Shown here one piece after another: positions 7,046 through 26,339 of a stretch of DNA of 64,000 nt (position 1 is its first letter; each line of letters starts with the position of its first letter). The position numbers were made by a program, and so were the translations under genes. Under the pieces are notes generated by a model that had not been told where the DNA came from, did not search any database, and saw nothing but the letters and a program-made list of their open reading frames with translations. This stretch comes from an uncultured Desulfobacter sp. (GTDB lineage: Bacteria > Desulfobacterota > Desulfobacteria > Desulfobacterales > Desulfobacteraceae), in assembly GCA_963665095.1 (NCBI GenBank), contig OY762069.1:3328001-3392000 (forward strand), read 5' to 3'.

Positions 7046-7289
7046 TCACGTATACTGTCCTCTTATCTTCAATGTTCACTTTAATTCAAGCAATGGGTGT
7101 AGATTCCCGAAATAATCTGAACAAAAACCCGCCAAATTTTTCATATTAAATTGACAAAGTTCCATTTTTCTCAAATTATCCTGTACAGGTTCTGATCAAA
7201 GCATTCTGACAAAAATGAAAAGGGCGAAAAGCTTTGCAGAGCCTCGCCCTTAAGACCGGGATTTATAAAATCCCAAAACAACCATAAAA

Positions 7290-7736
7290 ATGATAATAAA
7301 GGTCAAAGCTGATATCAAGCAAATTTTCAAGCAGGGCAAAAATTTTACATGGCCAAAACCGTCACGATGTCCACATTGCAACGACTCCAGGCTGTGGGGA
7401 CACGGCTTTGTACTCTCCTTTTTTGATGGATTTGATCAAGGGGTGTATTTGAAGCGATATCGCTGCCCCTATTGCAAAACCGTATTCAAATTGAAGCCAT
7501 ATGGTTTTTTCAAGAGGTTCCAGGCCAGTATCTGGCAAATCCTTACCAGCATTATGAGTCGTCTATACACAGACCGGTATCTGCCGGAACTCTCCTGGAG
7601 TCGACAGCATTTTTGGTTTACTGCATTGAAACGAAATATAGCGGCCTACCTGTCCAACAGTTGGGACAAAGGTGTGGTTGCTGGTTTTATCAAGCTAATC
7701 GGTATGGGTAAAATCCCGGTTACCAGTTCAATTTAA
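7290..7736 (+). CDS. CxxC/CxxC zinc-finger protein (DUF6431-like) of transposon A
   Basis: CPHC...WGHG...RYRCPYC; first gene inside the element. Confidence 0.7.
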   Translation: MIIKVKADIKQIFKQGKNFTWPKPSRCPHCNDSRLWGHGFVLSFFDGFDQGVYLKRYRCPYCKTVFKLKPYGFFKRFQASIWQILTSIMSRLYTDRYLPELSWSRQHFWFTALKRNIAAYLSNSWDKGVVAGFIKLIGMGKIPVTSSI

Positions 7737-7839
7737 CCATGGGGCTGGATCAGGTTTAAACCACCCTACCGAAGGCTGTGATTTACCGAAGGATCATACT
7801 GTCATACAAGCCCTTAGAACCAAATTTTAAGGAGGAAGT

Positions 7840-9096
7840 ATGACAGAAAATCAGAAAAAAGAGGTTGCCGTGTTCAGGTTTGGGGTCATTTGTGAATTTG
7901 TGACCGGAACAAATTTTGATTACGGTGAAAAAGAACGAATTTTACAGCAGAAGTGCGCCCGCAAATGGTCCATCCCGTATTCTGGAAGGACCAGGCTTTC
8001 CAGAAGTACGATTCTGGGATGGGTCCGGCAGTATAACGGTCGAATAGAGTCTCTTTACCCCAAAGACCGTTCAGACCAGGGAAAATCAAGGGTATTCGAT
8101 GACGAGACTGCATCTCAACTAATCAAACTCCGGTTAGACCAGCCTGATGCGACAGTCGATACATTGATCTGTTCACTTCAAAAAACTACATGCCAGACAT
8201 ACAGTCCATCCAGTGTATACCGTTTTTTACGCGGCCGGGGGCTAATGAACACGGCCCGGCCAGAGGATAGAAGAAAGTTTGAAGCCCCGCACCCCAATGA
8301 TATGTGGCAAAGCGACGTCATGCACGGCCCTACAGTCCTGGTTCAGGATAAGCAAAGAAAAACGTACCTGATTGCCATTATGGACGATCATTCCAGGCTG
8401 GTTACGGCTGCAGGTTTTTATTTATCTGAGAATCTGAAGACCTATCTTATGGTGCTGGAGCAGGCTTTTTTGAGCCGTGGGCTTCCCCGCAAGCTGTATG
8501 TAGATAACGGTCCTGCGTTCAGATCCCATCATTTAAAATATGTAGCAGCGTCTCTGTCCATCGCTTTAATCCATGCAAGGCCATATAAGCCCCAGGGGAA
8601 AGGTAAAATCGAGCGCTGGTTCAGAACGGTTCGGCTTCAGTTTCTGCAAAGATTTACAGGTAAGACCCTGGATGATCTGAATGGGGCATTTGAGAAGTGG
8701 CTTCATAATGAGTACCATCAGCGTAAACACAGCTCCACAGGCGAATCACCGTTTAAAAGATTTACCTCGGCCATGGAGTGCATCCGTACCGCCCCACCGG
8801 ATCTGAAAGACCACTTCCGCAAAACCGCCCGGCGCAAGGTGGCAAAGGACCGAACCATCACCCTTGACGGCAACATGTTTGAGGCCCCGGTTGCGCTGAT
8901 CGGCAGACATGTGGATGTAAAGTACCATGAGGACACCCCTTTGCAGGCTGAAGTTATCTATAAAGCAAAGTCTTATGGCTTGTTAACCCCGGTGGACCTT
9001 GCTGTGAACTGTCGGGTCAAGCGGCACCGCTGGAACGAAAATGATATCCGGATTATGCCTGAACCCTCAAATTACAAGGGAGGGCAACTGTTATGA
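7840..9096 (+). CDS. DDE (rve) transposase, IS481/Mu-like, with HTH and Mu-type C-terminus
   Basis: WQSDVMHG, DDHSR, YVDNGPAF, KGKIERWFRT; AGGAGG RBS. Confidence 0.9.
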   Translation: MTENQKKEVAVFRFGVICEFVTGTNFDYGEKERILQQKCARKWSIPYSGRTRLSRSTILGWVRQYNGRIESLYPKDRSDQGKSRVFDDETASQLIKLRLDQPDATVDTLICSLQKTTCQTYSPSSVYRFLRGRGLMNTARPEDRRKFEAPHPNDMWQSDVMHGPTVLVQDKQRKTYLIAIMDDHSRLVTAAGFYLSENLKTYLMVLEQAFLSRGLPRKLYVDNGPAFRSHHLKYVAASLSIALIHARPYKPQGKGKIERWFRTVRLQFLQRFTGKTLDDLNGAFEKWLHNEYHQRKHSSTGESPFKRFTSAMECIRTAPPDLKDHFRKTARRKVAKDRTITLDGNMFEAPVALIGRHVDVKYHEDTPLQAEVIYKAKSYGLLTPVDLAVNCRVKRHRWNENDIRIMPEPSNYKGGQLL

Positions 9097-9902
9097 GTGA
9101 AATGTATCGTACCTTTTTTGGCTTATATAGGGAGGCCTTCCCGGCGCAGATAGAAATCAATGATATCCTGGTCACCCCGGAGGTCTCGGGCGTTAAAAAT
9201 CGGATTGATTATTCCTTAAGACTTGGCTGCAGTGCGGTTATCACAGGGGATGTGGGCAGCGGAAAGTCCACCGCCTTAAGGTATGCCGCCTCATCCCTAC
9301 ACCCTTCGGAATACAAAGTCTTTTATGTTACGGCCTCAAGCGGTTCCATCATGGAACTTTACCGGCAGATTGTTGAAGAACTGGGCATAGAGCGGACATC
9401 GACGTCCCGCGCTGTTATGATCTCCATTATTAAAAATGAAATACGTGAATTCGTCCTGGGAAAAAAGATCAAAACCGTTTTGATTATAGATGAGGCATCT
9501 CTGCTTCGCATGGAAGTCTTTGCCGAACTTCACACCCTGGTTCAATTTGAAAAAGACGCCATGCCCTGGCTGCCTGTGATCCTTGCAGGTCAGCCGACAT
9601 TGATAGATAAGCTTCAGTACCGGACGTCAATCCCGTTTGCATCCAGGATTGTGGCTAAAAGCCATCTGGATGGTCTGGATGTGGCTGGAATGAAAACTTA
9701 CCTGATCCATCATTTAAAACTATGCGGTGTTGACACCAACTTTTTTTCTGACCAGGCGGTGACTGCGATTCATCAAGGCTCCGGCGGCCTTTTACGAAAG
9801 GCGAATAATCTTGCCAGAGGCTCATTGATTGCTGCTGCGGCAGAAAAATCAATGACGGTATCTGCAGAGCATGTCCGCATTGCTTCATCGGAAATTTTTT
9901 AA
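9093..9902 (+). CDS. ExeA/TniB-like AAA ATPase
   Basis: GDVGSGKST, LIIDEA, LAGQP; overlaps transposase stop (ATGA). Confidence 0.88.
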   Translation: MSEMYRTFFGLYREAFPAQIEINDILVTPEVSGVKNRIDYSLRLGCSAVITGDVGSGKSTALRYAASSLHPSEYKVFYVTASSGSIMELYRQIVEELGIERTSTSRAVMISIIKNEIREFVLGKKIKTVLIIDEASLLRMEVFAELHTLVQFEKDAMPWLPVILAGQPTLIDKLQYRTSIPFASRIVAKSHLDGLDVAGMKTYLIHHLKLCGVDTNFFSDQAVTAIHQGSGGLLRKANNLARGSLIAAAAEKSMTVSAEHVRIASSEIF

Positions 9903-9933
9903 GAAAAAACAGCCATAGAGCAGAATATTACGA

Positions 9934-10111
9934 TTTCGGTGAAACGGAGCCGGGCTCTGCTGAGGAGCAACCTGGTAAGGGATAGCCGGAAGCAGGCAGC
10001 ATTGAATAATGCGCCAGGGGAAGTGGGGATTACCTGCTTCCCCTTTCTGCTTTATTCAAGCTGTTCTGCCTATGCCTTAAAAACCTACTGAGAAGGAGCG
10101 CAGCGACTTCT
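9934..10111 (+). ncRNA. putative structured RNA at 3' end of transposon A
   Basis: about 85% identical by hand alignment to 24586-24770, with compensatory changes; strand assumed from gene orientation. Confidence 0.55.
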
Positions 10112-10195
10112 GTAGCTGTCTTAAATAATATGGAAAAGATTTAATCTGTTCAAAATAATTAGAAAATTTAAGTCAGGATAAAATGCGACTCAACA

Positions 10196-10721
10196 ATGGG
10201 CATGCCCGCTGCACGGAGTTCACGTGCCAATTCTTCTTTCCAGGTCCCGTCTTCATCGATACGGATATAAACGATACCATCGAAGTCTGAAGGAGTCTCC
10301 AAACCAGGACTAATCAAGGCGCAAACCCTTGGTTGCCCGAGATGGGCGAGAAAGTACCCAAGTTCAAGAATGACATTCTGACGTGCCCGGGGCTTCAATT
10401 TTTTGTCGTTTATACCTCCAATATCATCATCTGTCATAATAACAACAGCAAATGTAACGAGTTCAGCCTCTTCTATAAACTTTGTAAGAAGATGTCTTCC
10501 CATATTGGGTTGTTCGTGGAGAACTATTGGTTCTAAACCATGCGCTTTTAATTCACGAACAACTTCAATCCGAGCTGTATCATTTTGCCCGTGTACAACA
10601 AAGACTCGATTAGGCTCTCGATCACTAATTGATGTTTGTTTTGATCCTGGCGATAAGGATTCTACTCCTAAACCCTCGTGGTGATCTACTGCATCGTTAT
10701 TGTCGTCTCCATTTTCTTGAA
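10196..10721 (-). pseudogene. cassette 4 gene 2, C-terminal part: TIR-like domain (PF10137/Cap12-type)
   Basis: RVFVVHG...PIVLHEQPN...FAVVIMTDDD...RARQNVILELGYF...PSDFDG; in frame with 14074..14756 once IS21 is removed. Confidence 0.85.
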
Positions 10722-10820: not shown

Positions 10821-11555
10821 TTATTCTTCCGTCACATCTTTCATTCTAAAACTCTTACCCTCAATGACCACAGGCTCGGTGTGGTGAAGAAGCCTGTCCA
10901 GCAAAGCTGATGTTAATGTCATGTCATTGTTGAAGATCTCCGGCCAATCTTTGAACACCCGGTTTGTGGTTATTATGATGGCTCCTTGCTCATAGCGCTG
11001 ACTGATAATTTGGAACAACAGGTCTGCCCCAATCTTGTCAATGGGCAGGTAGCCCAGTTCATCCATGATCAACAAAGTTGGCTTGAGGTATTTTCTCAGT
11101 TCCTGCTTTAACTGACCCGCCTTCTGGGCTGCCACCAGATTGTTGACGATATCAATGGCAGAAGAGAACAGAACCGTATGGTTTTTCAGGCAGGCCTGGT
11201 AACCTAAAGCAGTCGCAATATGTGTTTTCCCAACACCGACCGGGCCGATCACGATAATGTTACCCTTTTCTTCAATGAACTTGAGTCTGAACAGATTCTG
11301 GATCTGAGCCTGATTGATTTTTCTGGGCCATGACCAGTTGAACTGGTCCAGGGTTTTGATTACCGGGAACTTGGCCATACGGATACGGCGCTGGATGGTT
11401 TTATCATGGCGCAGTAGTGATTCATGCCTGGCAAGCTCTGATAGATATTGAACGTGGCTCCATTGCTTCTGGGCAGCCAGGGTAGCCACTGACTCATAGT
11501 TTTCCCTGATATAAGGTAGTTTTAAGTGGGACAGGCATTTCTCAAGATCAGGCAT
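10821..11555 (-). CDS. istB: IS21 helper ATPase IstB
   Basis: GPVGVGKTH, LLIMDELGY, LLDRLLHH, IEGKSFR. Confidence 0.95.
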   Translation of the reverse strand: MPDLEKCLSHLKLPYIRENYESVATLAAQKQWSHVQYLSELARHESLLRHDKTIQRRIRMAKFPVIKTLDQFNWSWPRKINQAQIQNLFRLKFIEEKGNIIVIGPVGVGKTHIATALGYQACLKNHTVLFSSAIDIVNNLVAAQKAGQLKQELRKYLKPTLLIMDELGYLPIDKIGADLLFQIISQRYEQGAIIITTNRVFKDWPEIFNNDMTLTSALLDRLLHHTEPVVIEGKSFRMKDVTEE

Positions 11556-13023
11556 TTTTATCTCCTATGGCGGTATAAATATTAAGATCAGGCTCCTGGA
11601 TTGTCAGGTTCAGTAAATCTGCTTTATGTGTAACATGCAGGGCTCCGGGCTCCTGGGGAGACCGAACCCGCTGCTCAAGGAGGTTGGCGATGTATTCACA
11701 TGAGAATGCAGAGAACTTAAAGGCATCTTCAATGGCCATGGCAACTTGTTCCCGGGAGTAGATTTCACTCAAGGCCACGATTTGCCGTACATGATGGGAG
11801 GCGTTAAGCCGCCTGTTCTGCAATTGCCTGTAATACTCCCGGGCCTTGTCAGAGAGGCTTAAAAAACGCATATAAATTGCCTGGTCTCTGGCCTTTTTGC
11901 GCTGGCTCAAAAGGATTTTAGAGTGATCAGGATCTTCAAGGTCGTTTTTGCGGCCATAGGATCTGACATGGCGGGCAACCAACTTGTCTTCATGGTAAAA
12001 GCAGATCCGATCAGGGTAAAGCTTGGCAGTCAAAGCCACCCCTGCCAGCTGGGCGGGTACTGTGTAAGCATTTGTATCGATGACTACCCTGTACTGTCTT
12101 GAAGCCCGTACCTGCTTTACCACACCGATATCATAGGGTTCTGACGGCAGAGGGTATAGGTGGGGCAATTCCAGGGCATACATCTCTGCGGGCTTTTGAC
12201 CGGTCTCTCCGTGGGTTCTGACATTGGCGACAGTATCAAGCCAGTGTTTGCAGGTGGGCTCCATGATCTTAAAATCAGGGATTTCAAGACCGTTGAGCAG
12301 ATTCTTTTTGACATAGCCCACAGCATTTTCAACCCGGCCTTTTTCATTACCCTTGCGCACATTACAGGGAACAATTGTAAATCCGTAATAATCTGCAAAA
12401 TCAAGGTATCTGGGGTTGAAGACCGGGGCTTTCCCCAGCAGTCTTTTTAGAACAGCGGATTTGAGATTGTCCACCATGACCTTTTCCGGCACCTTTCCAA
12501 AAAACTCAAATGCATTCTGGTGGCAGCCTAAAAAATGCTCCATGGTCTGGGAGACCGTGAACTCAACGTACATCATGCGGCTGTGGCACATCACCATCAC
12601 AAAAAAGCTCAACCGCCGGGTCGTGTTGCCCACCCTTACTGTACTATAAGAACCCCAGTCCACCTGGGCAGCTTCACCCGGAGCAAAACTCAGTTTCAAA
12701 TACGCCTTTGTTTTGGGCGGCCGCACCTTCCTGACATAATCCTCAACAATGGTGATGCCCCCGGCAAAACCATCCTGGGTGATTCGTTGAAATATCTGGC
12801 GGGAACTGTAGGGATGTTTTTCAAGCATATGCAGGATGGCGTTCTTATACGGATCAAGCTTGCTTTCTCTGGGGGCTGACTGTCTGGGCTGGTACCTTTT
12901 CAGGTTGGCCCACCTGGCAACTGTCCTGGGGTCCAGATCAAGGGCATTGGCAATCTGGCTGTATGTCAGGCCGTCTCGGGTAAAGTAATTTCTGATTTGA
13001 ACATAGGTTTCGTAATCAATCAT
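11548..13023 (-). CDS. istA: IS21 transposase IstA
   Basis: APGEAAQVDWG, VDNLKSAV, EKGRVENAVGYVK. Confidence 0.95.
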   Translation of the reverse strand: MIDYETYVQIRNYFTRDGLTYSQIANALDLDPRTVARWANLKRYQPRQSAPRESKLDPYKNAILHMLEKHPYSSRQIFQRITQDGFAGGITIVEDYVRKVRPPKTKAYLKLSFAPGEAAQVDWGSYSTVRVGNTTRRLSFFVMVMCHSRMMYVEFTVSQTMEHFLGCHQNAFEFFGKVPEKVMVDNLKSAVLKRLLGKAPVFNPRYLDFADYYGFTIVPCNVRKGNEKGRVENAVGYVKKNLLNGLEIPDFKIMEPTCKHWLDTVANVRTHGETGQKPAEMYALELPHLYPLPSEPYDIGVVKQVRASRQYRVVIDTNAYTVPAQLAGVALTAKLYPDRICFYHEDKLVARHVRSYGRKNDLEDPDHSKILLSQRKKARDQAIYMRFLSLSDKAREYYRQLQNRRLNASHHVRQIVALSEIYSREQVAMAIEDAFKFSAFSCEYIANLLEQRVRSPQEPGALHVTHKADLLNLTIQEPDLNIYTAIGDKNA

Positions 13024-13402
13024 GGTTGCCCTCCGCTGCTGCTTTTAGAATATCTGAAAGACGCAGCATGGAGCCGTGCCGTTTTGATTTACCAGGAGCA
13101 GGGTCAAGGGCAAGCACCTGGTAAATAGGTCTCTGCCAGGCAATCAGCCCATTCTGTATTAACCCGGAACGTGCTGTCTTCAGGCCATCAGAATCCATGC
13201 ACAGCCGATCCATGATCGCCTTATCTCCATAGTAGCTGATGCCTTGACTGTCGGCCACACACACCAGAAACAGATATAGGGCGGACTGGGAGTGTGTACA
13301 CCTGTCAATGTGCCGTTCACGCACCAGGCGATGATCGATCCAACTGAAGCTTTGGGGTGTTTTTCGAACCCTGGATGGTAAAATGGGGGCCTTTGCAATC
13401 AT
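13016..13402 (-). CDS. IS21-associated winged-helix-like protein
   Basis: 128 aa, overlaps istA start; FSWIDHRL...LYLFLVCVAD...SYY. Confidence 0.65.
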   Translation of the reverse strand: MIAKAPILPSRVRKTPQSFSWIDHRLVRERHIDRCTHSQSALYLFLVCVADSQGISYYGDKAIMDRLCMDSDGLKTARSGLIQNGLIAWQRPIYQVLALDPAPGKSKRHGSMLRLSDILKAAAEGNHD

Positions 13403-13883
13403 TTTGCTCTCCTTCTTTTTGGGGTTGTGAACATAAAATGTCTTGCCCGTATTTTTTCATACGAAGGAGCGTGGAAGCGATGTCATCTTGTAACGCACTG
13501 CCTGTAAAGTTGGCGATTAACCCTATAATGACAGGAGGTTGCGCCCGTAAGAAATCTTGTAACGCATTGTCCATGAATTGCGTTGAATCCTGTTTATTTT
13601 CAGCCTGTTGGGGCAATATCGAGTCTTGTAACGTATCTGGGCTTTTGGTCTTCTTCCAATATCCGGGATTCTTCTTTCTCCATTCCTGAACACGTTCAAC
13701 ATGGGCAGGCCCACAAAAGTAGTTTCGATTTTCAGGCTTGTTCAGCCATTTTTTCTGGCTGCACCTTTTGCTGGCTTTTCTGCACTCAGATCTGGAACAG
13801 TATTTTTGAGAGTCTATATTTCTTGGATTAGGAGCGAATAATCTTCTACAATTTCGGCACCTTCTTTTCTTGAGTAGTCCCAT
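13317..13883 (-). CDS. IS21-associated Cys-rich hypothetical protein
   Basis: CRNC...YCSRSEC; GGAGG RBS; inside the IS ends. Confidence 0.65.
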   Translation of the reverse strand: MGLLKKRRCRNCRRLFAPNPRNIDSQKYCSRSECRKASKRCSQKKWLNKPENRNYFCGPAHVERVQEWRKKNPGYWKKTKSPDTLQDSILPQQAENKQDSTQFMDNALQDFLRAQPPVIIGLIANFTGSALQDDIASTLLRMKKYGQDILCSQPQKEGEQNDCKGPHFTIQGSKNTPKLQLDRSSPGA

Positions 13884-16752: not shown

Positions 16753-18663
16753 GTGTGCCGGGCACGGCACGTGTTCTTAAAAGTGAGTCAAACGTAAACG
16801 ATTTCAATGCGTTTGGCAAGTCTTAGGCCCAGCCGGATGGAGGCGAAGGGTGTAGTGGTAGTGCAACGGGGTACCGGTGACGGTGCTTCGGAAGGAAGCC
16901 GCCTTGCTGAGGCAAGGTACCGCAAAAGTACGGGATGACGTACAGGAATCGGATATAAGGCGCACATACCGGGACGAGCCTGCACAACAAGGTGAAGTCC
17001 TCTATCCATTACAGGGTATGTCCGTAAATCCGGCATTCACGTACTGAAAGACACGTGTTTACCCCGGGAGATCTCCCATGTGCCGTAACGGCTGAGGGGC
17101 GGGTAACCGACTCTGACCGCATGGGAGAAGTCAGCAGAAGGCATAGTAGGCGGAGGAAACGAGCCCTGCAAACCAGGGAGGACTCACCCCGGTGAAGGCC
17201 TGAACGGTGCCCGGGCCGAATGGTCCGGGTAAATGATAACGACAAATAGGAGATGTGTACTTGTGAACAGATCGCCACAGCAGATGGAACTGTTTCCAGC
17301 GTCACAAATTGCCGAACGTCTGGGAAACAATGCCCGGTTAATGGAGATGATCCTTGAACGCAACAACATTATCCTGGCATGGAAACATGTCTGTGCAAAC
17401 AAGGGTGCCCCTGGGGTGGATGGTATGAAAACCAGCCAGCTTGGCAGCTACCTTGCAAAGCACTGGCATGAAATCAAACAAGACCTGCTTAACGGCAGGC
17501 ACAAACCGCTACCGGTTAAAAGGAAGGAAATCCCCAAACCAGACGGCGGAATCCGTTTACTTGGAATACCCACGGTGCTTGACCGGTTTATTCAACAGGC
17601 CATATCCCAGGTCCTGGAACAGATCTGGGACCCCTTTTTCTCTGAACACAGTTATGGGTTCAGGCCCGGCAGATCCGCACACGATGCGGTAATGCAGGGT
17701 AAAAGGTACATGGTTGAAGGTTATACCTATGTCGTTGATATGGACCTGTCGAAATTTTTTGACCGAGTTTCGCACGACCGCCTGATGAGCAGACTCGCCA
17801 GAAGAATAAAAGATAAGCGCGTATTGAAGGTAATACGACAATATCTGAGGTCTGGTGTGCTGGTCTCGGGCGTCACGGTGCCTACAGAAGAAGGGACTCC
17901 CCAGGGAGGTCCTCTTTCTCCGCTGCTGTCCAATATTGTCCTGGATGAACTGGATAAAGAGTTGGAGAAACGAGGCCACCGGTATGTTCGGTATGCCGAT
18001 GATTTTATGATTTTCTGCAAAAGCCGCAAGGCTGCCGAAAGGGTTATGGAGAGTATCACCCGGTTTCTGACGGTGAAACTCAAGCTCAAAGTAAACCAGG
18101 AGAAAAGTGCTGTCAGCAGACCCTGGCTGAGCAAATTCTTAGGATTCACATATTTTCAAATGTGTGGGCAGTCCAAGATCCGGATTCACGCCAAGAGCAT
18201 GAAACGGTTCAAGGACAAGGTCCGGGAATTAACCAGCCGTAAACGGGGCAAAAGCCTGTGGCAGGTGATTCAGGACTTGAACCAGTACATTCGTGGATGG
18301 TGGGGTTATTTCCGGCTCACGGAAACCCTCTATTTTCTGAAAGAACTCAAGGTCTGGATACTGCGACGGCTGAGAAGTCTTGTCTGGAAACAATGGAAAA
18401 ACCCTGGAACCAGGGTTCGTAACCTGGAAAAACTTGGTATTTCGCATGGGGACGCCATGCTTTGCGGTAACGCCCGTAAAAAGTACTGGCACATGAGCAA
18501 AATCAAGTGGGTGGCCATTGCCATGCCTGAAATGTATTTTGTCAAAAAAGGATTATATCTGCCCGGGAACTGATTTCCGAAATCAGCCGAACCGCCTTGG
18601 TACGTGATCCGTATGCCGGGTGGTGTGGGAGGGCTCCTCAGTGATGGGGAGTCCTATCCCGAT
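16753..18663 (+). mobile_element. group II intron, class C-attC type (1911 nt)
   Basis: 5' GTGTG; domain V gaaccgcc...ggtggtgtgggagg; 3' end cctatcccgat; inserted at TTGT/TA on the attC bottom strand. Confidence 0.92.
17233..18573 (+). CDS. ltrA: group II intron reverse transcriptase/maturase (no endonuclease domain)
   Basis: NKGAPGVDG, LGIPTVLDR, PQGGPLSPLLSNI, RYADD, maturase RGWWGYF. Confidence 0.96.
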   Translation: MITTNRRCVLVNRSPQQMELFPASQIAERLGNNARLMEMILERNNIILAWKHVCANKGAPGVDGMKTSQLGSYLAKHWHEIKQDLLNGRHKPLPVKRKEIPKPDGGIRLLGIPTVLDRFIQQAISQVLEQIWDPFFSEHSYGFRPGRSAHDAVMQGKRYMVEGYTYVVDMDLSKFFDRVSHDRLMSRLARRIKDKRVLKVIRQYLRSGVLVSGVTVPTEEGTPQGGPLSPLLSNIVLDELDKELEKRGHRYVRYADDFMIFCKSRKAAERVMESITRFLTVKLKLKVNQEKSAVSRPWLSKFLGFTYFQMCGQSKIRIHAKSMKRFKDKVRELTSRKRGKSLWQVIQDLNQYIRGWWGYFRLTETLYFLKELKVWILRRLRSLVWKQWKNPGTRVRNLEKLGISHGDAMLCGNARKKYWHMSKIKWVAIAMPEMYFVKKGLYLPGN

Positions 18664-20308: not shown

Positions 20309-21265
20309 ATGCTAAAAGTCCCACCAGCCCTAATCGCAAAATATGACCGGCTGCTGGTTAACAGCGAAGCGCAGCCAAAAGAATACCCTGCCTATCGAAA
20401 ATGGCTCAGGTACTATCTTGATTTTTGCAAAAAATATGATCATGAATATGCAGACTCCGAAAGCTTGTTGCTTTATATTGATAAGCTGAAATCAAAGAAG
20501 CAGAATTTGTTTCAGCAAAATCAGGCCCAAAAGGCAGTAAAGCTATACTATGCAGGACTGGAAAAACAAACACAAATCTTTGCCCATAACCATCCTGAGT
20601 CCATTCCCGAGATTCAAGAGGGGGCAAATCCTTTCTGCACAGGCAATGAAAACGATCTCTGGGATCGATCCATACAATTATTAAAAAATGAAATACTGGT
20701 CCGTCATTATTCAAAAAAGACCTTGAAATCTTATTCATTGTGGGCTGAAAAACTACGCTATTTTGTCAAAGGGAAAAAACCTGAAACTTTGAACGTTGAA
20801 GATGTGAAGGGTTTTCTGACATTCCTTGCTGTAAAGAAAAAGGTTTCAGCGTCTTCCCAAAACCAGGCGTTTAATGCTTTGTTATTTTATTTCAGGCATG
20901 TATTGAAAAAAGAATTCGGTAAGGTGGACGGGGTAGTCAGGGCCAAAAGGAGACCGTATGTGCCTGTGGTGCTGTCCAGGGAAGAGGTTGATCGGGTTAT
21001 TAACTGTCTGGAATACCCTATGATCTGGTAGTGAAGCTTTTGTACGGATGCGGTCTGCGTTTGGCGGAATGCATGAAGTTGAGAATAAAGGATTTTAATT
21101 TCGATCATAACCTGATCACCATCCACGATGGGAAAGGTAAAAAGGACAGGACCGTTCCAATACCGGAGACAGTCCGAGGGGAACTTGAACGGCAAATCAG
21201 TCATGTCGTTGATGTCCACGAGGATGATCTTAAAGAGGGGTTCTCTGGGGTTTTTATGCCCAATC
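20309..21265 (+). pseudogene. intI: integron integrase, 5' part (frameshift near 21018, then IS3 insertion)
   Basis: SASSQNQAFNALLFYF, PVVLSREEV, LLYGCGLR, DGKGKKDR; adding one T restores YPYDLVVKLLYG. Confidence 0.92.
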
Positions 21266-21446
21266 TGAAGTGGACCCCATGTCAAGACCGATTTTAACGT
21301 TTTTTAAGTGAGAATGATCACAAAAAATCATGGAAAAATTAAAGATAATTTGCAAGATATGCCAGGGATGAGGCAGAAGCTCCCCCGTTTATCTCGCAAA
21401 TAATCAATGGAACTTCTGCCCCTATTACCCTAACAGGGCAGGAGAT

Positions 21447-22022
21447 ATGCTATCAGAACTTATTAAAAACAAAAATCTTTTTTTCCATCTTTACGAAATC
21501 GATAAAAATACAGCAAAACAGTACAGACAGTTGCCTTGTCCGCATTGTGGAGGCCCCTTATATTTCAGCAATTACATGCGCAAGCCCCGGGGAGAGCCTG
21601 AGGGCGTGCCGGAGGAATTCTTTATTCAGTTCAGCCTATGTTGTGGAACCGAAGGGTGTCGCAAAAGATTGATGCCGCCGTCCTGCCGTTTTCTGGGGAG
21701 AAAAGTCTACTGGTTTGCAGTTATTCTGTGTGTTTTAACAGACTGGCAAAATACCAATGAAAAAATCACCGTTTATGATTTGTCCATACGAACTGGCATT
21801 AGCCGGAACACAATAAACCGCTGGCTTGCCTTTTTTCAGGATACATTTCCAGTGAGCCGAACCTGGCGAAGGCTTCGGGGGCAGATATCCGCTGGTGTCA
21901 GTAACAGCCGTCTGCCGTCAAGTTTCATCAATTATTGCCGGGCGGTGAAATCCAACGCCGAAAACGCACTTGTATCAAGCCTGATAATCTTATCAGGCGG
22001 GTCCAAAATCAGGGCCGGATAA
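21447..22022 (+). CDS. zinc-finger + HTH protein of transposon B
   Basis: CPHC...CCGTEGC; GISRNTINRW HTH-like segment; AGGAG RBS. Confidence 0.75.
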   Translation: MLSELIKNKNLFFHLYEIDKNTAKQYRQLPCPHCGGPLYFSNYMRKPRGEPEGVPEEFFIQFSLCCGTEGCRKRLMPPSCRFLGRKVYWFAVILCVLTDWQNTNEKITVYDLSIRTGISRNTINRWLAFFQDTFPVSRTWRRLRGQISAGVSNSRLPSSFINYCRAVKSNAENALVSSLIILSGGSKIRAG

Positions 22023-22128
22023 TCTCGCGCAGAGGATGAACATAGACAAATATATGCAGGCTGTTTTACCACCTGATTTCAGACGTTGATCCGAAATTTT
22101 AACCTGAAATTAAAAAGGAGCCTGATTT

Positions 22129-23574
22129 ATGAGTGGTAAAACACAGCACCCGGCAGACCTGTGGGCATTATTTCGCTTTTCGGTTATCGGCGGTTTACTG
22201 GCACGCCCTCCGGCAAAGGGAGAGTTGCAAAATGAACTGACCCGGCTCGCAGGTCAAATCTATTCTCATCCTGTGACGAACAAACCGACCTGTTTTCATT
22301 TTTCCACAATTGAGGCCTGGTATTACAGGGCAAAAAATTGCCAGGACCCAATTCTGGCTCTGGGCCGTAAAGTTCGTTCAGATATGGGCAAATCCACAGC
22401 ATTGAATGCTGAATTGATCCGCCTTCTTGGTGTCCAGTACAACACTTATCCGCAATGGAGCTATCAGCTTCATTGCGACAACCTGGCAGCTGAAATCGCT
22501 GAACAGGGCCTGTGTGAGAATCCGCCGTCCTATGCAAGTGTGAGAAGGCGTATGGTTGAACGGGGTTGGAGAAAAAAGGCTTCCAAGAACAAAAATCAAA
22601 CATCCGGACAGAAATCAGCTTTTAAGCGATTAGAAACGTATGAAGTCCGTAGTTATGAAACCGAAAACATCCATGAATTATGGCATCTGGACTTTCACGA
22701 ATGCAGCAGGCGCGTGGTGGACGAAAAAGGTCAGTGGCATACGCCCAAGGCATTGTGCATTCTTGATGATCGCTCCCGTCTGTGTTGTCATATTCAATGG
22801 TATTTGAATGAAACGGCAGAGGTTTTGATCCACGGCTTGTCCCAGGCGTTTTACAAAAGAGGGCTTCCCAGAGCCTTGATGACAGATAATGGTTCTGCCA
22901 TGATTGCTCATGAAACCGGCAACGGACTTAAACGATTGGGCGTCAGTCATGAGACCACGTTGCCATACTCGCCCTATCAAAATGGGAAGCAGGAAGCCTT
23001 TTGGGGTACACTTGAAGGCCGTTTGATCGCCATGCTGAGCCGGATGGATTCTTTGACCCTGGTATATTTAAATCAGGTCTCCCAGGCCTGGATCGAGATG
23101 GAATACAACAAGTCAACCCATGATGAAATTCATATGTCGCCATTGCAATGCGCCCTTGACGGCAAGGATGTGTCACGTCCTGCACCGGAACCTGAACAGC
23201 TTCAATTTTCGTTTACAGCCTGTGAATCCAGAAAACAGCGTCTGTCCGATGGTACCATCTCTTTGATGGGCATCCGGTTTGAAATCCCTTCACGGTTTAA
23301 TCATATCCAGCGTCTTCATGTCTGTTTTTGCTCCTGGGATAAATCGGTTGCCTGGCTGATAGATAAACGAACCGGAAATAAGCTTGCCGCAATTTATCCC
23401 CAGGACAAGACAAAGAATGCTTCAGCAATCCGTCGTATCAAATCCACTCCGGATGAAATTAACCCTGGCCATGAAACCCTGTCCGGATCAGAACCGGCCC
23501 TGCTTAAAAAGCTCTTGTCCGATTATGCAGCAACCGGAATGCCTTGTGCCTACTTGCCAATGGAGGAAAAGTGA
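22129..23574 (+). CDS. DDE (rve) transposase, IS481/Mu-like
   Basis: LWHLDFH, DDRSR, MTDNGSAM, QNGKQEAFW. Confidence 0.9.
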   Translation: MSGKTQHPADLWALFRFSVIGGLLARPPAKGELQNELTRLAGQIYSHPVTNKPTCFHFSTIEAWYYRAKNCQDPILALGRKVRSDMGKSTALNAELIRLLGVQYNTYPQWSYQLHCDNLAAEIAEQGLCENPPSYASVRRRMVERGWRKKASKNKNQTSGQKSAFKRLETYEVRSYETENIHELWHLDFHECSRRVVDEKGQWHTPKALCILDDRSRLCCHIQWYLNETAEVLIHGLSQAFYKRGLPRALMTDNGSAMIAHETGNGLKRLGVSHETTLPYSPYQNGKQEAFWGTLEGRLIAMLSRMDSLTLVYLNQVSQAWIEMEYNKSTHDEIHMSPLQCALDGKDVSRPAPEPEQLQFSFTACESRKQRLSDGTISLMGIRFEIPSRFNHIQRLHVCFCSWDKSVAWLIDKRTGNKLAAIYPQDKTKNASAIRRIKSTPDEINPGHETLSGSEPALLKKLLSDYAATGMPCAYLPMEEK

Positions 23575-24398
23575 TGAACAGCAAACGATTATTGGCTTAT
23601 TATGGATTGAAGTACAATCCTTTTTTACCAAATATTCCTGTGGACTCATTATGGCATCCACCCCGGATGGAGGCATTTATTACACGCCTTGAAAATATGA
23701 CCATGAACGGTGGATTTGCATTAATCGCCGGTGAACCCGGTCTTGGCAAATCCAAGACACTACAGGCGATTGCCCATCAGCTTGGCAAGCTTGATGAAGT
23801 CGTTGTCGGCGTTATGGAGCGCCCCCAAAGCAGCGTGGCCGATTTCTATCGGGAAATGGGGACACTGTTTGGTGTCAATTTGAGTCCGGCCAACCGTTAC
23901 GGAGGGTTCAAAGATCTGCGGCAACGATGGAAAAATCATATTAAAACAACCCTGTTCAGACCCGTCCTGCTCATTGATGAGGCTCAGGAAATGCTTACCG
24001 GATGCCTGAATGAGCTTCGGTTGCTCAACAGTATGGATTTTGACTCCCAGAATTTATTGACCACCATTATCTGTGGTGATACCCGGCTGCCGGAACGGTT
24101 CAGAACCAGTGCATTGGTAGCCCTGGGGAGTCGACTCCGGTTCCGGTTAAAATTGGATCCTTATACCCGGGAAGAATTGTTGGATTATATAGCGCATTGC
24201 CTAAATCAGGCCGGAGCTCCTCAACTCATGACAAAACCTTTAATCACCGCTTTGGTAGAGCACTGTACAGGAAACTTACGGGTCCTCAATAATATGTCGG
24301 CAGAACTGCTTGAAGTGGGCGTTCAAAGAGAGCTGCCGCAACTGGATGAGAAACTTTTCATAGAGCTTTTTTCACTGAAACCGTCGCCAACCAGATAA
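23574..24398 (+). CDS. ExeA/TniB-like AAA ATPase
   Basis: GEPGLGKS, LLIDEAQ; start MNSKR after GGAGG. Confidence 0.88.
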   Translation: MNSKRLLAYYGLKYNPFLPNIPVDSLWHPPRMEAFITRLENMTMNGGFALIAGEPGLGKSKTLQAIAHQLGKLDEVVVGVMERPQSSVADFYREMGTLFGVNLSPANRYGGFKDLRQRWKNHIKTTLFRPVLLIDEAQEMLTGCLNELRLLNSMDFDSQNLLTTIICGDTRLPERFRTSALVALGSRLRFRLKLDPYTREELLDYIAHCLNQAGAPQLMTKPLITALVEHCTGNLRVLNNMSAELLEVGVQRELPQLDEKLFIELFSLKPSPTR

Positions 24399-24409
24399 GA
24401 GGTATAAAA

Positions 24410-24652
24410 ATGACAATCAATGAAACACAACTTGAAAAAACAATGGCTGAAATTGTCGACGAGCTGGGCAATCTGGTCATGGAGTTGATCCTTGTCAGTT
24501 TAAAAAAAATAAACTCGGAAAATCATCTTTTGACAGAATTGCTGGAGATCAAACAAGAGGAACAAAGAGAAAATGAATTTTATGGTTTTGGTGAAACGGA
24601 GCCGGGACATCCTGGGGAGGAAACCCGGCAAGGGATAGCCAAAAGCAGGTAG
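24410..24652 (+). CDS. small hypothetical protein (80 aa) overlapping the structured element
   Basis: AGAGGT RBS, 11 nt after ATPase stop. Confidence 0.5.
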   Translation: MTINETQLEKTMAEIVDELGNLVMELILVSLKKINSENHLLTELLEIKQEEQRENEFYGFGETEPGHPGEETRQGIAKSR

Positions 24653-24770
24653 CATTGAATAATGCGCCGGGGGAAGCGGGGTTGACCTGCTTCCCCTTTC
24701 TGTATTATTCAAGCTTTCCTGCTCATGCCTTAAAAAACCCAATAAAATCAGTCGGAGCGCAGCGACATCT
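24586..24770 (+). ncRNA. putative structured RNA at 3' end of transposon B
   Basis: homolog of 9934-10111 with covarying stems. Confidence 0.55.
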
Positions 24771-25145
24771 GCTAATCATTGAAAATACAGTTATGCCTTT
24801 CCCTGATTTATCCTGATTGTCGCTCCATTGATTATCGTGCTTCCTCTCATTTAAGCTACATTTTCTCTGTTTCTAATTTCGAATCAGCCTGTTAAAGACC
24901 CTCTTTTCCGGCATATTTTTCTTGATATTTAATACCGCTATGTTATCCTCCCGCCGCCAACCCGGAGGATAGGGCAATGCTGGGAAGCAACCTGAGCGCC
25001 GTGGCTGGCGACGAAGACATGGGGGCAGTATACGTTTAATGTATGCTGTCCTTCCCCCATGTTTTTGTCCTTAATGCGTTAAATCCTCGCGCCTTAGCGC
25101 GAAATCAATACCCCGTAGGGCCGCCGGAGGCATCAGGCCTTTCCT

Positions 25146-25952
25146 TTAAGCCGCTCGATAGACCGAAAACGGCACCTTATACCCCAGGGCTGAATGAAGT
25201 CTCTCCCGATTATAAAACCCGATAAACGCTTTTAACGATTGCTGAGCCTCTCTTACCGTTCTGTAGTCCTTCAAATAGACTTCTTCGTATTTAATCGTTC
25301 TCCACAGCCGTTCCACAAAAACGTTGTCCAAGGCTCTGCCCTTTGAATCCATGCTGATTTTGATGTTTTTAGCCTGGAGTATCTTCAAAAATTTTAATGA
25401 AGTGAACTGACTACCCTGGTCAGTGTTGAAAATCTCAGGTGTCGATACAATCAATGCCTCCTCAAGGGCCTCAATACAAAATGTATTCTCAAGGGTGTTA
25501 CTGAGGCGCCATGAAAGGACATATCTGCTAAACCAATCCATAACCGCCGATAAGTACATAAATCCGTTTCCAATTCTAATGTATGTGATATCTGTACTCC
25601 ATACCTGATCTGGCCTGTCAATTACGGCATTTTTCAGCAAATAGGGGTAAACTTTATGGCTTTCATCCCTCCTTGTTGTTTTAGGTCCTGGGTAAATCGC
25701 TTCTATTCTCATCAGCTTCATCAGGCGCTGTACTCGTTTCCTGCTTACCGGATACCCCATATTGTTCAGCCAGGCTGTAAGCCTACGGCTTCCATAAAAG
25801 GGGGTTTTGGTATGCTGCTCATCAAGCAGATCCATAAGGGTTAATGTATACGGGCTTATGGCTACCGGCCTGTAATACAACGCCCCTTTTGAAACCTGAA
25901 GCAGTTCACACTGCCGGTTAATGCTGATGGAAGGATGTTGTTTATCTATCAA
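25146..25952 (-). CDS. IS3 transposase OrfB
   Basis: FYGSRRL, VWSTDITY, FNTDQGSQFTS, DNVFVERLWRTIKYE. Confidence 0.93.
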   Translation of the reverse strand: MIDKQHPSISINRQCELLQVSKGALYYRPVAISPYTLTLMDLLDEQHTKTPFYGSRRLTAWLNNMGYPVSRKRVQRLMKLMRIEAIYPGPKTTRRDESHKVYPYLLKNAVIDRPDQVWSTDITYIRIGNGFMYLSAVMDWFSRYVLSWRLSNTLENTFCIEALEEALIVSTPEIFNTDQGSQFTSLKFLKILQAKNIKISMDSKGRALDNVFVERLWRTIKYEEVYLKDYRTVREAQQSLKAFIGFYNRERLHSALGYKVPFSVYRAA

Positions 25953-25962
25953 CCCCCTTCTG

Positions 25963-26247
25963 TCAGAGATTGATTGTATTAACCTTTTTTTTTAACCAGT
26001 CATTCTCAACTTCGAGCTGACCGATTTTCTTATATAATTCGTCTATTAGATTCTGAGTATCATTTGGGCTTTTCTTTTTCGCTGATGAAAACAACGTCGG
26101 AAGACCCTCTATCGCTTCTTTCTTCCATCTGTTTAACATAGTTCGATGAACCTGGTATTTGGATGACAACTCCGCAAGAGTTTCATTTTCTCGAATCACA
26201 TCAACTACAACTTTAGCTTTGAACTTTCCGGTATAATTTTTTCTCAT
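25963..26247 (-). CDS. IS3 transposase OrfA
   Basis: FKAKVV...WKK...[28 protein letters not shown]9 run at 25985-25993. Confidence 0.9.
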
Positions 26248-26339
26248 GGACCTCCTTTTTCGGTACAAATTTGAACCGGGTTTTTATCACCTCATATGTA
26301 CCTTAGCAACTGGTTCAAATTTCGGGGTCCATTATAATC

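Follow-up and report, generated by a model that had tools for sequence, protein, structure and literature searches.

The question raised by this locus is why two transposons with divergent proteins carry nearly the same stretch of some 150 nt, and what that stretch might do. Both elements lie in a 64,000-nt piece of the forward strand from an uncultured Desulfobacter sp. (assembly GCA_963665095.1, contig OY762069.1, positions 3,328,001-3,392,000), here called the window. Transposon A (7098-10195, + strand; 14 genome copies) has TGT..ACA ends and target duplications of 4-5 bp, and encodes on the + strand a Zn-ribbon protein (7290-7736), an IS481-like DDE transposase (7840-9096) and an AAA_22 ATPase (9093-9902). 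The lead for the Zn protein is a likeness to DUF6431, which is found on 41-90% of members in the three best clusters. Transposon B (21309-24849, + strand; 13 genome copies) has TGA..TCA ends, target duplications of 3-7 bp and + strand genes for a Zn protein (21447-22022), a DDE transposase (22129-23574) and an AAA ATPase (23544-24398), followed by a small ORF (24410-24652). Duplication lengths were read by eye in both elements, and the spread in B is unusual for a single DDE element. A hairpin (AAGGGCG..CGCCCTT, 7230-7250) lies upstream of the Zn-finger ORF of A, and B has a hairpin at 21372-21420.

Global alignment of the shared blocks (A, 9934-10084; B, 24586-24737) gives 128 identical positions out of 152 (84%), and in the same alignment the flanks are near background (82/150 and 43/88 identical); by BLAST the similarity spans 186 nt at 80.6% identity. 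The DDE and AAA proteins of the two elements are 27.6% and 22.6% identical, respectively. The original prediction of a block about 85% identical in two divergent transposons is thus borne out, and every pairing-preserving difference it listed is present in the two sequences. The + strand of the A block folds better than shuffled sequences (z -4.20; - strand, z -1.84), as does the B block (z -5.14). Searches with the covariance models of Rfam 15 gave no match to either block at the gathering score (best E 2), and the sole match among 13 homologous loci was an unrelated RNase P, in agreement with the original note, which could not assign the block to a known family. Resemblances to the glnA, c-di-AMP, SAM, guanidine-III, twister and HDV motifs found no support in Rfam.

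Anatomy of the cassette

The shared unit (hereafter the cassette) is predicted to run in the order promoter, covarying core of ~60 nt, guide hairpin, terminator-like stem and complementary site or tail (ATGCCT plus an A-tract). In A the core (9934-9991, + strand) comprises the helix P1 (9934-9940 with 9985-9991) and the hairpin P2/P2a (9949-9976), with the + strand linkers J1/2 (GAAACGGA, 9941-9948) and J2/1 (AGGGATA, 9978-9984), the latter being the first guide segment. The RNA gene of B (24586-24702, + strand) has a core at 24586-24644, then guide and terminator-like stem; its start is overlapped by the small ORF noted above, which encodes 80 aa and is probably a real fourth gene of B, since relatives have similar ORFs after the ATPase gene whether or not they carry the cassette.

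Evidence for the core comes from two alignments, both drawn from the matches listed. A plain alignment with 92 sequences has 92.4% of its cells paired and two-sided changes in 14 of 18 pairs, and none of 500 shuffles reached either the covariation or the pairing score; a model-fitted alignment of 84 sequences (from 100 input loci) gave 95.6% paired and two-sided changes in 13 of 17 pairs. Core pairs include 214 G-U against 19 A-C (the search pattern itself fixes the column that supplies 92 of the 214), and the independent set 95 against 29. These counts support both the covarying structured RNA and the preference for a + strand transcript that had been read from the G-U pairs of A and B. The linkers had been called invariant; this does not hold across the family, since of 124 contexts obtained with the independent pattern (among the matches listed) just 5 and 13 retain them. 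Instead the linkers vary in step, J1/2 and J2/1 being either A-G or G-A without exception (104 and 38 of 142), and J2/1 also covaries with the site (G-C 126, C-G 15 and G-G 1 of 142), both among the matches listed. Few independent events may lie behind the J1/2-J2/1 and J2/1-tail covariation. A base triple is possible.

Upstream of the core of A there is, judging from position, a candidate weak sigma70-type promoter (9899-9926, + strand; -35 TTAAGA at 9899-9904, -10 CAGAAT at 9921-9926), and at one further locus (L303) TTGACA-17-CAGAAT occupies the same place. Among the matches listed, 48 of 90 and 49 of 114 loci have a -10 hexamer at one constant distance ahead of P1 (most other offsets gave 0-9), and a TAnnTTTG-type box, which we take to be a Bacteroidota promoter, occupies the -10 position in 48 of 114. 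The fixed offset predicts that the RNA starts at P1. No promoter was found at the usual spacing before the RNA gene of B.

Downstream of the core, the second guide segment of A (9992-10012, + strand) folds as a small hairpin (9999-10012) when unpaired; a local guide hairpin is found in 164 of 190 loci, compared to ~112 expected from shuffles (among the matches listed). A GC-rich, terminator-like stem followed by a short U-tract (10017-10049, + strand) is the probable 3' end of an RNA of ~115 nt, and among the matches listed 78 of 157 loci have such a stem ahead of the site (compared to 4 with one on the reverse strand). The target site of A (10051-10085, + strand) consists of the complement of the second guide (10051-10070), TATGCCT (10071-10077), which would pair with J2/1, and an A-tract plus CC (10078-10085). 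Long-range pairing with the guide complement is found in 143 of 157 same-strand loci, with a median length of 154 nt (among the matches listed). Close to the site of A lies a DNA-type mini-hairpin with a GNA-loop (GAGCGCAGCGA, 10096-10106, + strand). In B, site and mini-hairpin together occupy 24703-24765 (+ strand), with CATGCCT at 24724-24730, an A-tract to 24739 and the mini-hairpin at 24755-24765. A mini-hairpin occurs within 40 nt of the site in 45 of 147 loci (among the matches listed), compared to 9, 6 and 6 in controls, 4 on the reverse strand and 3.9 in shuffles; a motif nearly identical to that of A lies downstream of the ColE1 origin. The bases assigned earlier to a second long hairpin are present, but a better reading divides them into guide, terminator-like stem and a target site of its own. 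Promoter, internal terminator-like stem, a 3' site on either strand and a third copy of the cassette were all absent from that account.

The third copy (cassette C, 24939-25131, + strand) is diverged and lies inside an IS3-family element, antisense to its transposase. Its + strand parts are a -10 (TATGTT, 24939-24944), a P2 module (24973-24992), a tail (~25071-25086) and mini-hairpins (25111-25131); the covariance-model match is weak (E 0.14), and both models miss it at E<=0.01. The genome contains nine identical copies of C, one partial copy and one at 88%. All cassette copies in the genome lie within A, B or the IS3-family element, with the possible exception of one diverged copy of C. Transposon B is itself inserted ~44 nt inside one end of this IS3-family element (21265-21308 and 24850-26330). 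The site ends exactly 110 nt from the right end in both A (10085-10195) and B (24739-24849), and the sequence between is unrelated. A conserved ORF beginning at the ATG of the tail was considered and is unlikely, because the ATG varies.

Distribution, carriers and the movable site

A two-motif pattern gave at least 114 loci in GTDB genomes, and an independent P2-hairpin pattern at least 119 loci, of several subtypes, in metagenomes. The RNA class is larger than these samples; at the same time loci are related by descent, and locus counts therefore overstate independent events. The matches listed come from Planctomycetota, Desulfobacterota, Acidobacteriota, Bacteroidota and other phyla, and among them the core spans 48-49 nt in 97 of 101 distinct cores. 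Covariance-model searches found the cassette in at least 2 of 151 genomes in the phylum of the window, at least 2 of 151 around a Bacteroidota genome and at least 12 of 151 around a planctomycete (each set includes its centre genome, and the counts are lower bounds because 34 candidates were scored per genome). Viral contigs gave no match with the strict or the Hymenobacter-type pattern and 6 loci with each of two looser patterns; plasmid searches gave few true matches. Alignment A2 excludes three loci taken for chance matches (L012, L070 and L076), of which L070 later scored as a true diverged copy. At one locus (L189, 2477-2623) core plus promoter are partially duplicated in tandem.

Carriers are diverse. 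Pfam scans covered 105 of 189 listed neighbouring ORFs in a first set and 94 of 136 in a second. Counted by locus among the matches listed, the neighbours are rve (33), IS110 (19), ISL3 (7), IS256-type (4), IstB (4), DUF1670 (3), Mob_Pre (2) and DDE_Tnp_1 (only 2), with single cases of IS200, TnpB, IS66, IS4-type and tyrosine integrase; these are raw counts, uncorrected for the abundance of IS families. The cassette thus stands beside IS3/IS481, IS110, ISL3, IS21 and IS256 elements (among the matches listed), and is carried by small plasmids with MobV and RepL-like genes, some of which have no transposase gene adjoining it. No element-encoded protein common to all carriers was found among the neighbouring ORFs scanned. 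Within elements its position varies (5', internal, 3', sense or antisense), and it is often antisense to the 3' end of the transposase gene. On plasmid pOR1 (L152, 14180-14280) an exact P2/P2a module with diverged surroundings lies between mob genes and a small ORF.

Relatives of the ATPase of A carry the cassette at 3 of 19 loci, counting one per genome or contig and leaving out 11 duplicate or own-genome rows; three of the 16 loci without it have less than 100 nt of downstream DNA. By these 16 loci the cassette is dispensable, and the low share among relatives, together with the many unrelated carriers, marks it as an accessory module rather than part of one transposase system. The original prediction of a transposon-encoded non-coding RNA therefore stands as regards a structured + strand RNA and is not supported as regards a tie to Zn-finger/DDE/AAA transposons; a role as transpososome cofactor is likewise not supported, the cassette being absent from most DUF6431/IS481-like/AAA elements compared.

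The site itself is movable. Among the matches listed, 160 loci have flanks: 108 have a same-strand site downstream of the RNA gene, 15 an opposite-strand site upstream of it, 5 an opposite-strand site downstream and 5 a site on each strand, and the strict pattern found none in 27. Put differently, RNA and A-tract follow in same-strand order in 113 of 160, and 20 of 160 have a site on the opposite strand only. These 20 are among the 47 loci that lack the usual downstream site, and 15 of them have the site upstream of the promoter. The control rate is 5 in 1504 windows of 95 nt (the downstream search window was 225 nt, the others 95 nt). In 19 upstream-opposite cases no position is common to -10 hexamers on the bottom strand, and the top-strand -10 is kept in 15; nor was a conserved divergent promoter for a two-piece RNA found in upstream-opposite loci. 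Guide-site pairing beats shuffles (p<=0.05) in 10 of 17 upstream-opposite cases tested.

Individual carriers show the same freedom. An end motif that we label ISL3-like, after the ISL3 transposases at its loci, keeps a distance of 29-32 nt past the site whichever way the RNA gene points (the same way at 7 loci, the opposite way at 3; 2 deviate). On a Tunicatimonas plasmid the other strand bears the site, upstream of the promoter, and the layout of pairing is unchanged; Hymenobacter-type plasmids have two facing sites, one on each strand, in one case with a cargo gene between, and the tail is locked within a near-perfect palindrome. Palindrome arms of 49 bp flank a 161-aa cargo ORF on a small plasmid (L232, 1104-1729), and the arms are adjacent in relatives. 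Since the site can lie on the opposite strand, upstream of the promoter, the transcript cannot always include it, and pairing in trans between the RNA and a DNA site is the most likely arrangement. The idea that an inverted tail is a mere anti-tail switch was dropped on account of the sites upstream of the promoter. Among 603 tail-like sites in the genome, no stand-alone site was multi-copy, those of A and B excepted.

A possible role in second-strand synthesis

Our preferred reading, held tentatively and with rather less than even confidence, is that the cassette could be a signal through which an RNA guides second-strand synthesis while the element is single-stranded. Its first part would be a small RNA gene with its own promoter, giving an RNA of ~110-130 nt in which P1, an 8x8 non-canonical internal loop and P2/P2a make up a rigid core, with two guide segments and a terminator-like end; its second part would be a DNA site of ~30 nt, complementary to the guides and followed by an A-tract and often a DNA mini-hairpin. 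Once the strand bearing the site is single-stranded (as in copy-out IS circles, or rolling-circle or transferred plasmid strands), the RNA would dock on the site and either serve as primer of the complementary strand or recruit host enzymes for it: initiation would thus proceed without an element-encoded primase. The 3' side of the docked RNA would point along the template and away from the mini-hairpin, as that of a primer would, and two facing sites would allow copying of both strands. Sequence comparison shows the structure, the promoter, the guide-site covariation, the freedom of the site in strand and position relative to the RNA gene, and the range of carriers; we infer that the RNA is made, that DNA is its partner and that it primes. 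More generally, it is conceivable, to about the same degree, that the cassette is a widespread protein-free module in which the small RNA of an element recognises an ssDNA site and acts as primer, or possibly catalyst, in completing the strand.

In favour of this reading are the opposite-strand sites, the constant spacing to the ISL3-like end motif, the covariation of J2/1 with the site, the terminator-like stem ahead of the site and the strand-specific mini-hairpins with their ColE1 likeness. A common feature of the carriers would also support strand initiation: they share a single-stranded or figure-eight stage. IS21, ISL3 and IS481 elements pass through such a stage. IS3, IS256 and IS30 are described as copy-out elements in the accessible text of PMC7780238, IS110 as releasing single-stranded circles in that of two preprints (10.64898/2026.08.31.748434; 10.1101/2025.10.25.684509), and RepL as a rolling-circle family needing an orientation-dependent sso in that of PMC5703833. 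That the pairing partner moves between strands would point to RNA-DNA recognition without a dedicated protein. Other observations count against priming. The RNA 3' end would be unpaired when docked, so that an extra processing step would be needed, and about two thirds of loci fit an ordinary single-chain pseudoknot equally well. The dispensability of the cassette, the 27 of 160 loci with no site by the strict pattern, and the failure to find stand-alone sites in other multi-copy elements of the genome also tell against it. By the rule used, the terminator-like stem is missing in half of the loci, and the mini-hairpin in 102 of 147 (among the matches listed). Within the IS110 group, and likewise within the IS3 group, the site may be on either strand with respect to the transposase. 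The nearer site of the Tunicatimonas plasmid and repL occupy opposite strands, so that the site is not on the strand that rolling-circle replication would be expected to displace.

The pseudoknot fit has its counterpart in an all-RNA device, in which read-through or a second transcript would supply the 3' strand and close a pseudoknot or triple helix, leaving a stable RNA of ~155 nt as decoy, sensor or regulator. The long-range basal pairing agrees with such a device, as do the perfect J1/2-J2/1 swap and the possible triple, which are tertiary contacts of the RNA type. We nevertheless consider it unlikely: every one of the three inverted arrangements would need an additional promoter, and no such promoter is conserved; the Hymenobacter-type tail is locked within its palindrome; and the strand-specific DNA mini-hairpins are left unexplained. 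A purely DNA account, either a single-strand origin of folded ssDNA primed by RNA polymerase or a mere terminator spread by recent swaps, appears very improbable given that -35/-10 spacing is conventional, that the two parts can occupy different strands and that covariation is deep across phyla. This last point also speaks against the recent DNA swap that might by itself have explained the similarity of A and B, even if the two share one genome and could have exchanged the block; on the side of a DNA origin, the available text of PMC5703833 describes ssoA as ~160 nt long, structured and primed by RNA polymerase.

Three further explanations keep an active RNA or an independent element. In a cis origin of the ColE1 kind, read-through RNA would clamp the displaced strand, form an R-loop and be cut at the A-tract for extension by Pol I, with the mini-hairpin as primosome site. 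The order of promoter, structured RNA, A-tract and GAGCG-N-AGCGA motif is that of ColE1, but the scheme is unworkable as such where the site is upstream and opposite (15 loci, plus 2 with both), the cassette is much shorter than the ColE1 region and plasmid carriers encode Rep proteins; we think it improbable. It is just as doubtful that the docked RNA cuts or marks the DNA site instead of priming, whether as a ribozyme itself or by guiding a host nuclease, helicase or recombinase: no Rfam ribozyme matched and no conserved junction or scar was seen at the site, even though the fixed-length core, two guide arms beside a conserved A-tract and the lack of a common element-encoded protein would suit such a role. 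Finally, a selfish hitch-hiker or a regulator of transposase expression, comparable to Ssr9 or IS antisense RNAs, would account for the patchy, accessory occurrence and the frequent antisense position, and Ssr9 (in the available text of PMC12288879) provides a precedent; against this, own terminal repeats or stand-alone copies were not found in the genome, position varies and some plasmid cases have no adjoining transposase gene. We regard it as a slim prospect.

Returning to RNA-guided strand initiation, the cassette would work most like an sso/ssi or ColE1-type primer system, with a guide logic like that of bridge RNA. ColE1, as presented in the accessible text of PMC3167613, uses an RNA primer, RNase H, Pol I and ssiA/n'-pas, with a primosome assembly site downstream of the origin. 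The likeness (promoter-driven structured RNA, A-tract, downstream GAGCG-N-AGCGA motif) rests on short motifs; unlike the ColE1 origin, the cassette measures ~150-190 nt in all, has a terminator-like stem before the site, has a site whose sequence is the complement of RNA segments and which may lie on either strand and at varying positions, and occurs mainly inside IS elements. With ssoA/ssoU (PMC5703833) and RSF1010 ssiA/ssiB (PMC8567376), as far as the available texts describe them, it would share a strand-specific DNA signal, and it has in common with them flexible position and occurrence on small Rep/Mob plasmids, the facing sites of Hymenobacter-type plasmids being a further likeness; those signals are read by RNA polymerase or primase, whereas the site of the cassette is matched by a separately encoded RNA with covarying guides.

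Like the bridge RNA of IS110, as outlined in the accessible part of its literature, the cassette RNA is IS-encoded and structured, and some of its segments would base-pair with the DNA of the element that encodes it. Guide RNAs of TnpB and IscB are likewise IS-encoded structured RNAs that pair with DNA. Unlike bridge and omega RNAs, the cassette has no dedicated partner protein, is common to unrelated transposase families and plasmids, and has an internal site that is neither element end nor insertion target. Membership among bridge or omega RNAs was rejected: the neighbours (rve, IS110, ISL3, IS256, IS21 and RepL/MobV) show no linkage to one recombinase or nuclease family. MITE membership was rejected as well, on the terminal repeats and stand-alone copies missing from the genome. 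Ssr9/MITEPpu9 of ISPpu9 is similar in being a small RNA gene downstream of an IS110 transposase and dispensable for transposition; according to the available description (PMC12288879) it differs in pairing with Asr9 RNA, in having its own end boxes and in being reported from three strains. Mobile or repeat candidates of the Breaker laboratory (PMC11109978, available text) are also multi-copy covarying motifs near transposases; MRSC-65-2, the one example compared of 250 candidates, is a single long stem, unlike the cassette.

No description of the cassette was found in the literature searched, that is in the accessible text of PMC3167613, PMC11109978, PMC7780238, PMC12288879 and PMC5703833, Minerva, COMPASS and the two IS110 preprints; supplements of PMC11109978, PMC8632094 and PMC5737381 and the COMPASS database may list the motif. 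The cassette is real and widespread; its function we infer. Conversion of copy-out IS circles to double strands is left to unnamed host factors in the available text of PMC7780238 and of the preprints (10.64898/2026.08.31.748434; 10.1101/2025.10.25.684509). The cassette is a concrete candidate for completing these circles, open to compensatory mutation tests. If true, there would be an RNA-guided single-strand origin common to copy-out IS families and small plasmids; if priming fails, there is still an abundant RNA class without Rfam match.

Three neighbouring features of the window were recorded in passing. A TIR-domain ORF (CAP12/Pycsar-type, 10168-10503) is cut by the right end of A, and an IS21-type element with two extra ORFs (10821-13883) adjoins this interrupted ORF. 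Further along is a group II intron (RF02001, 16871-17058) with its RT/maturase-like ORF (17233-18573).
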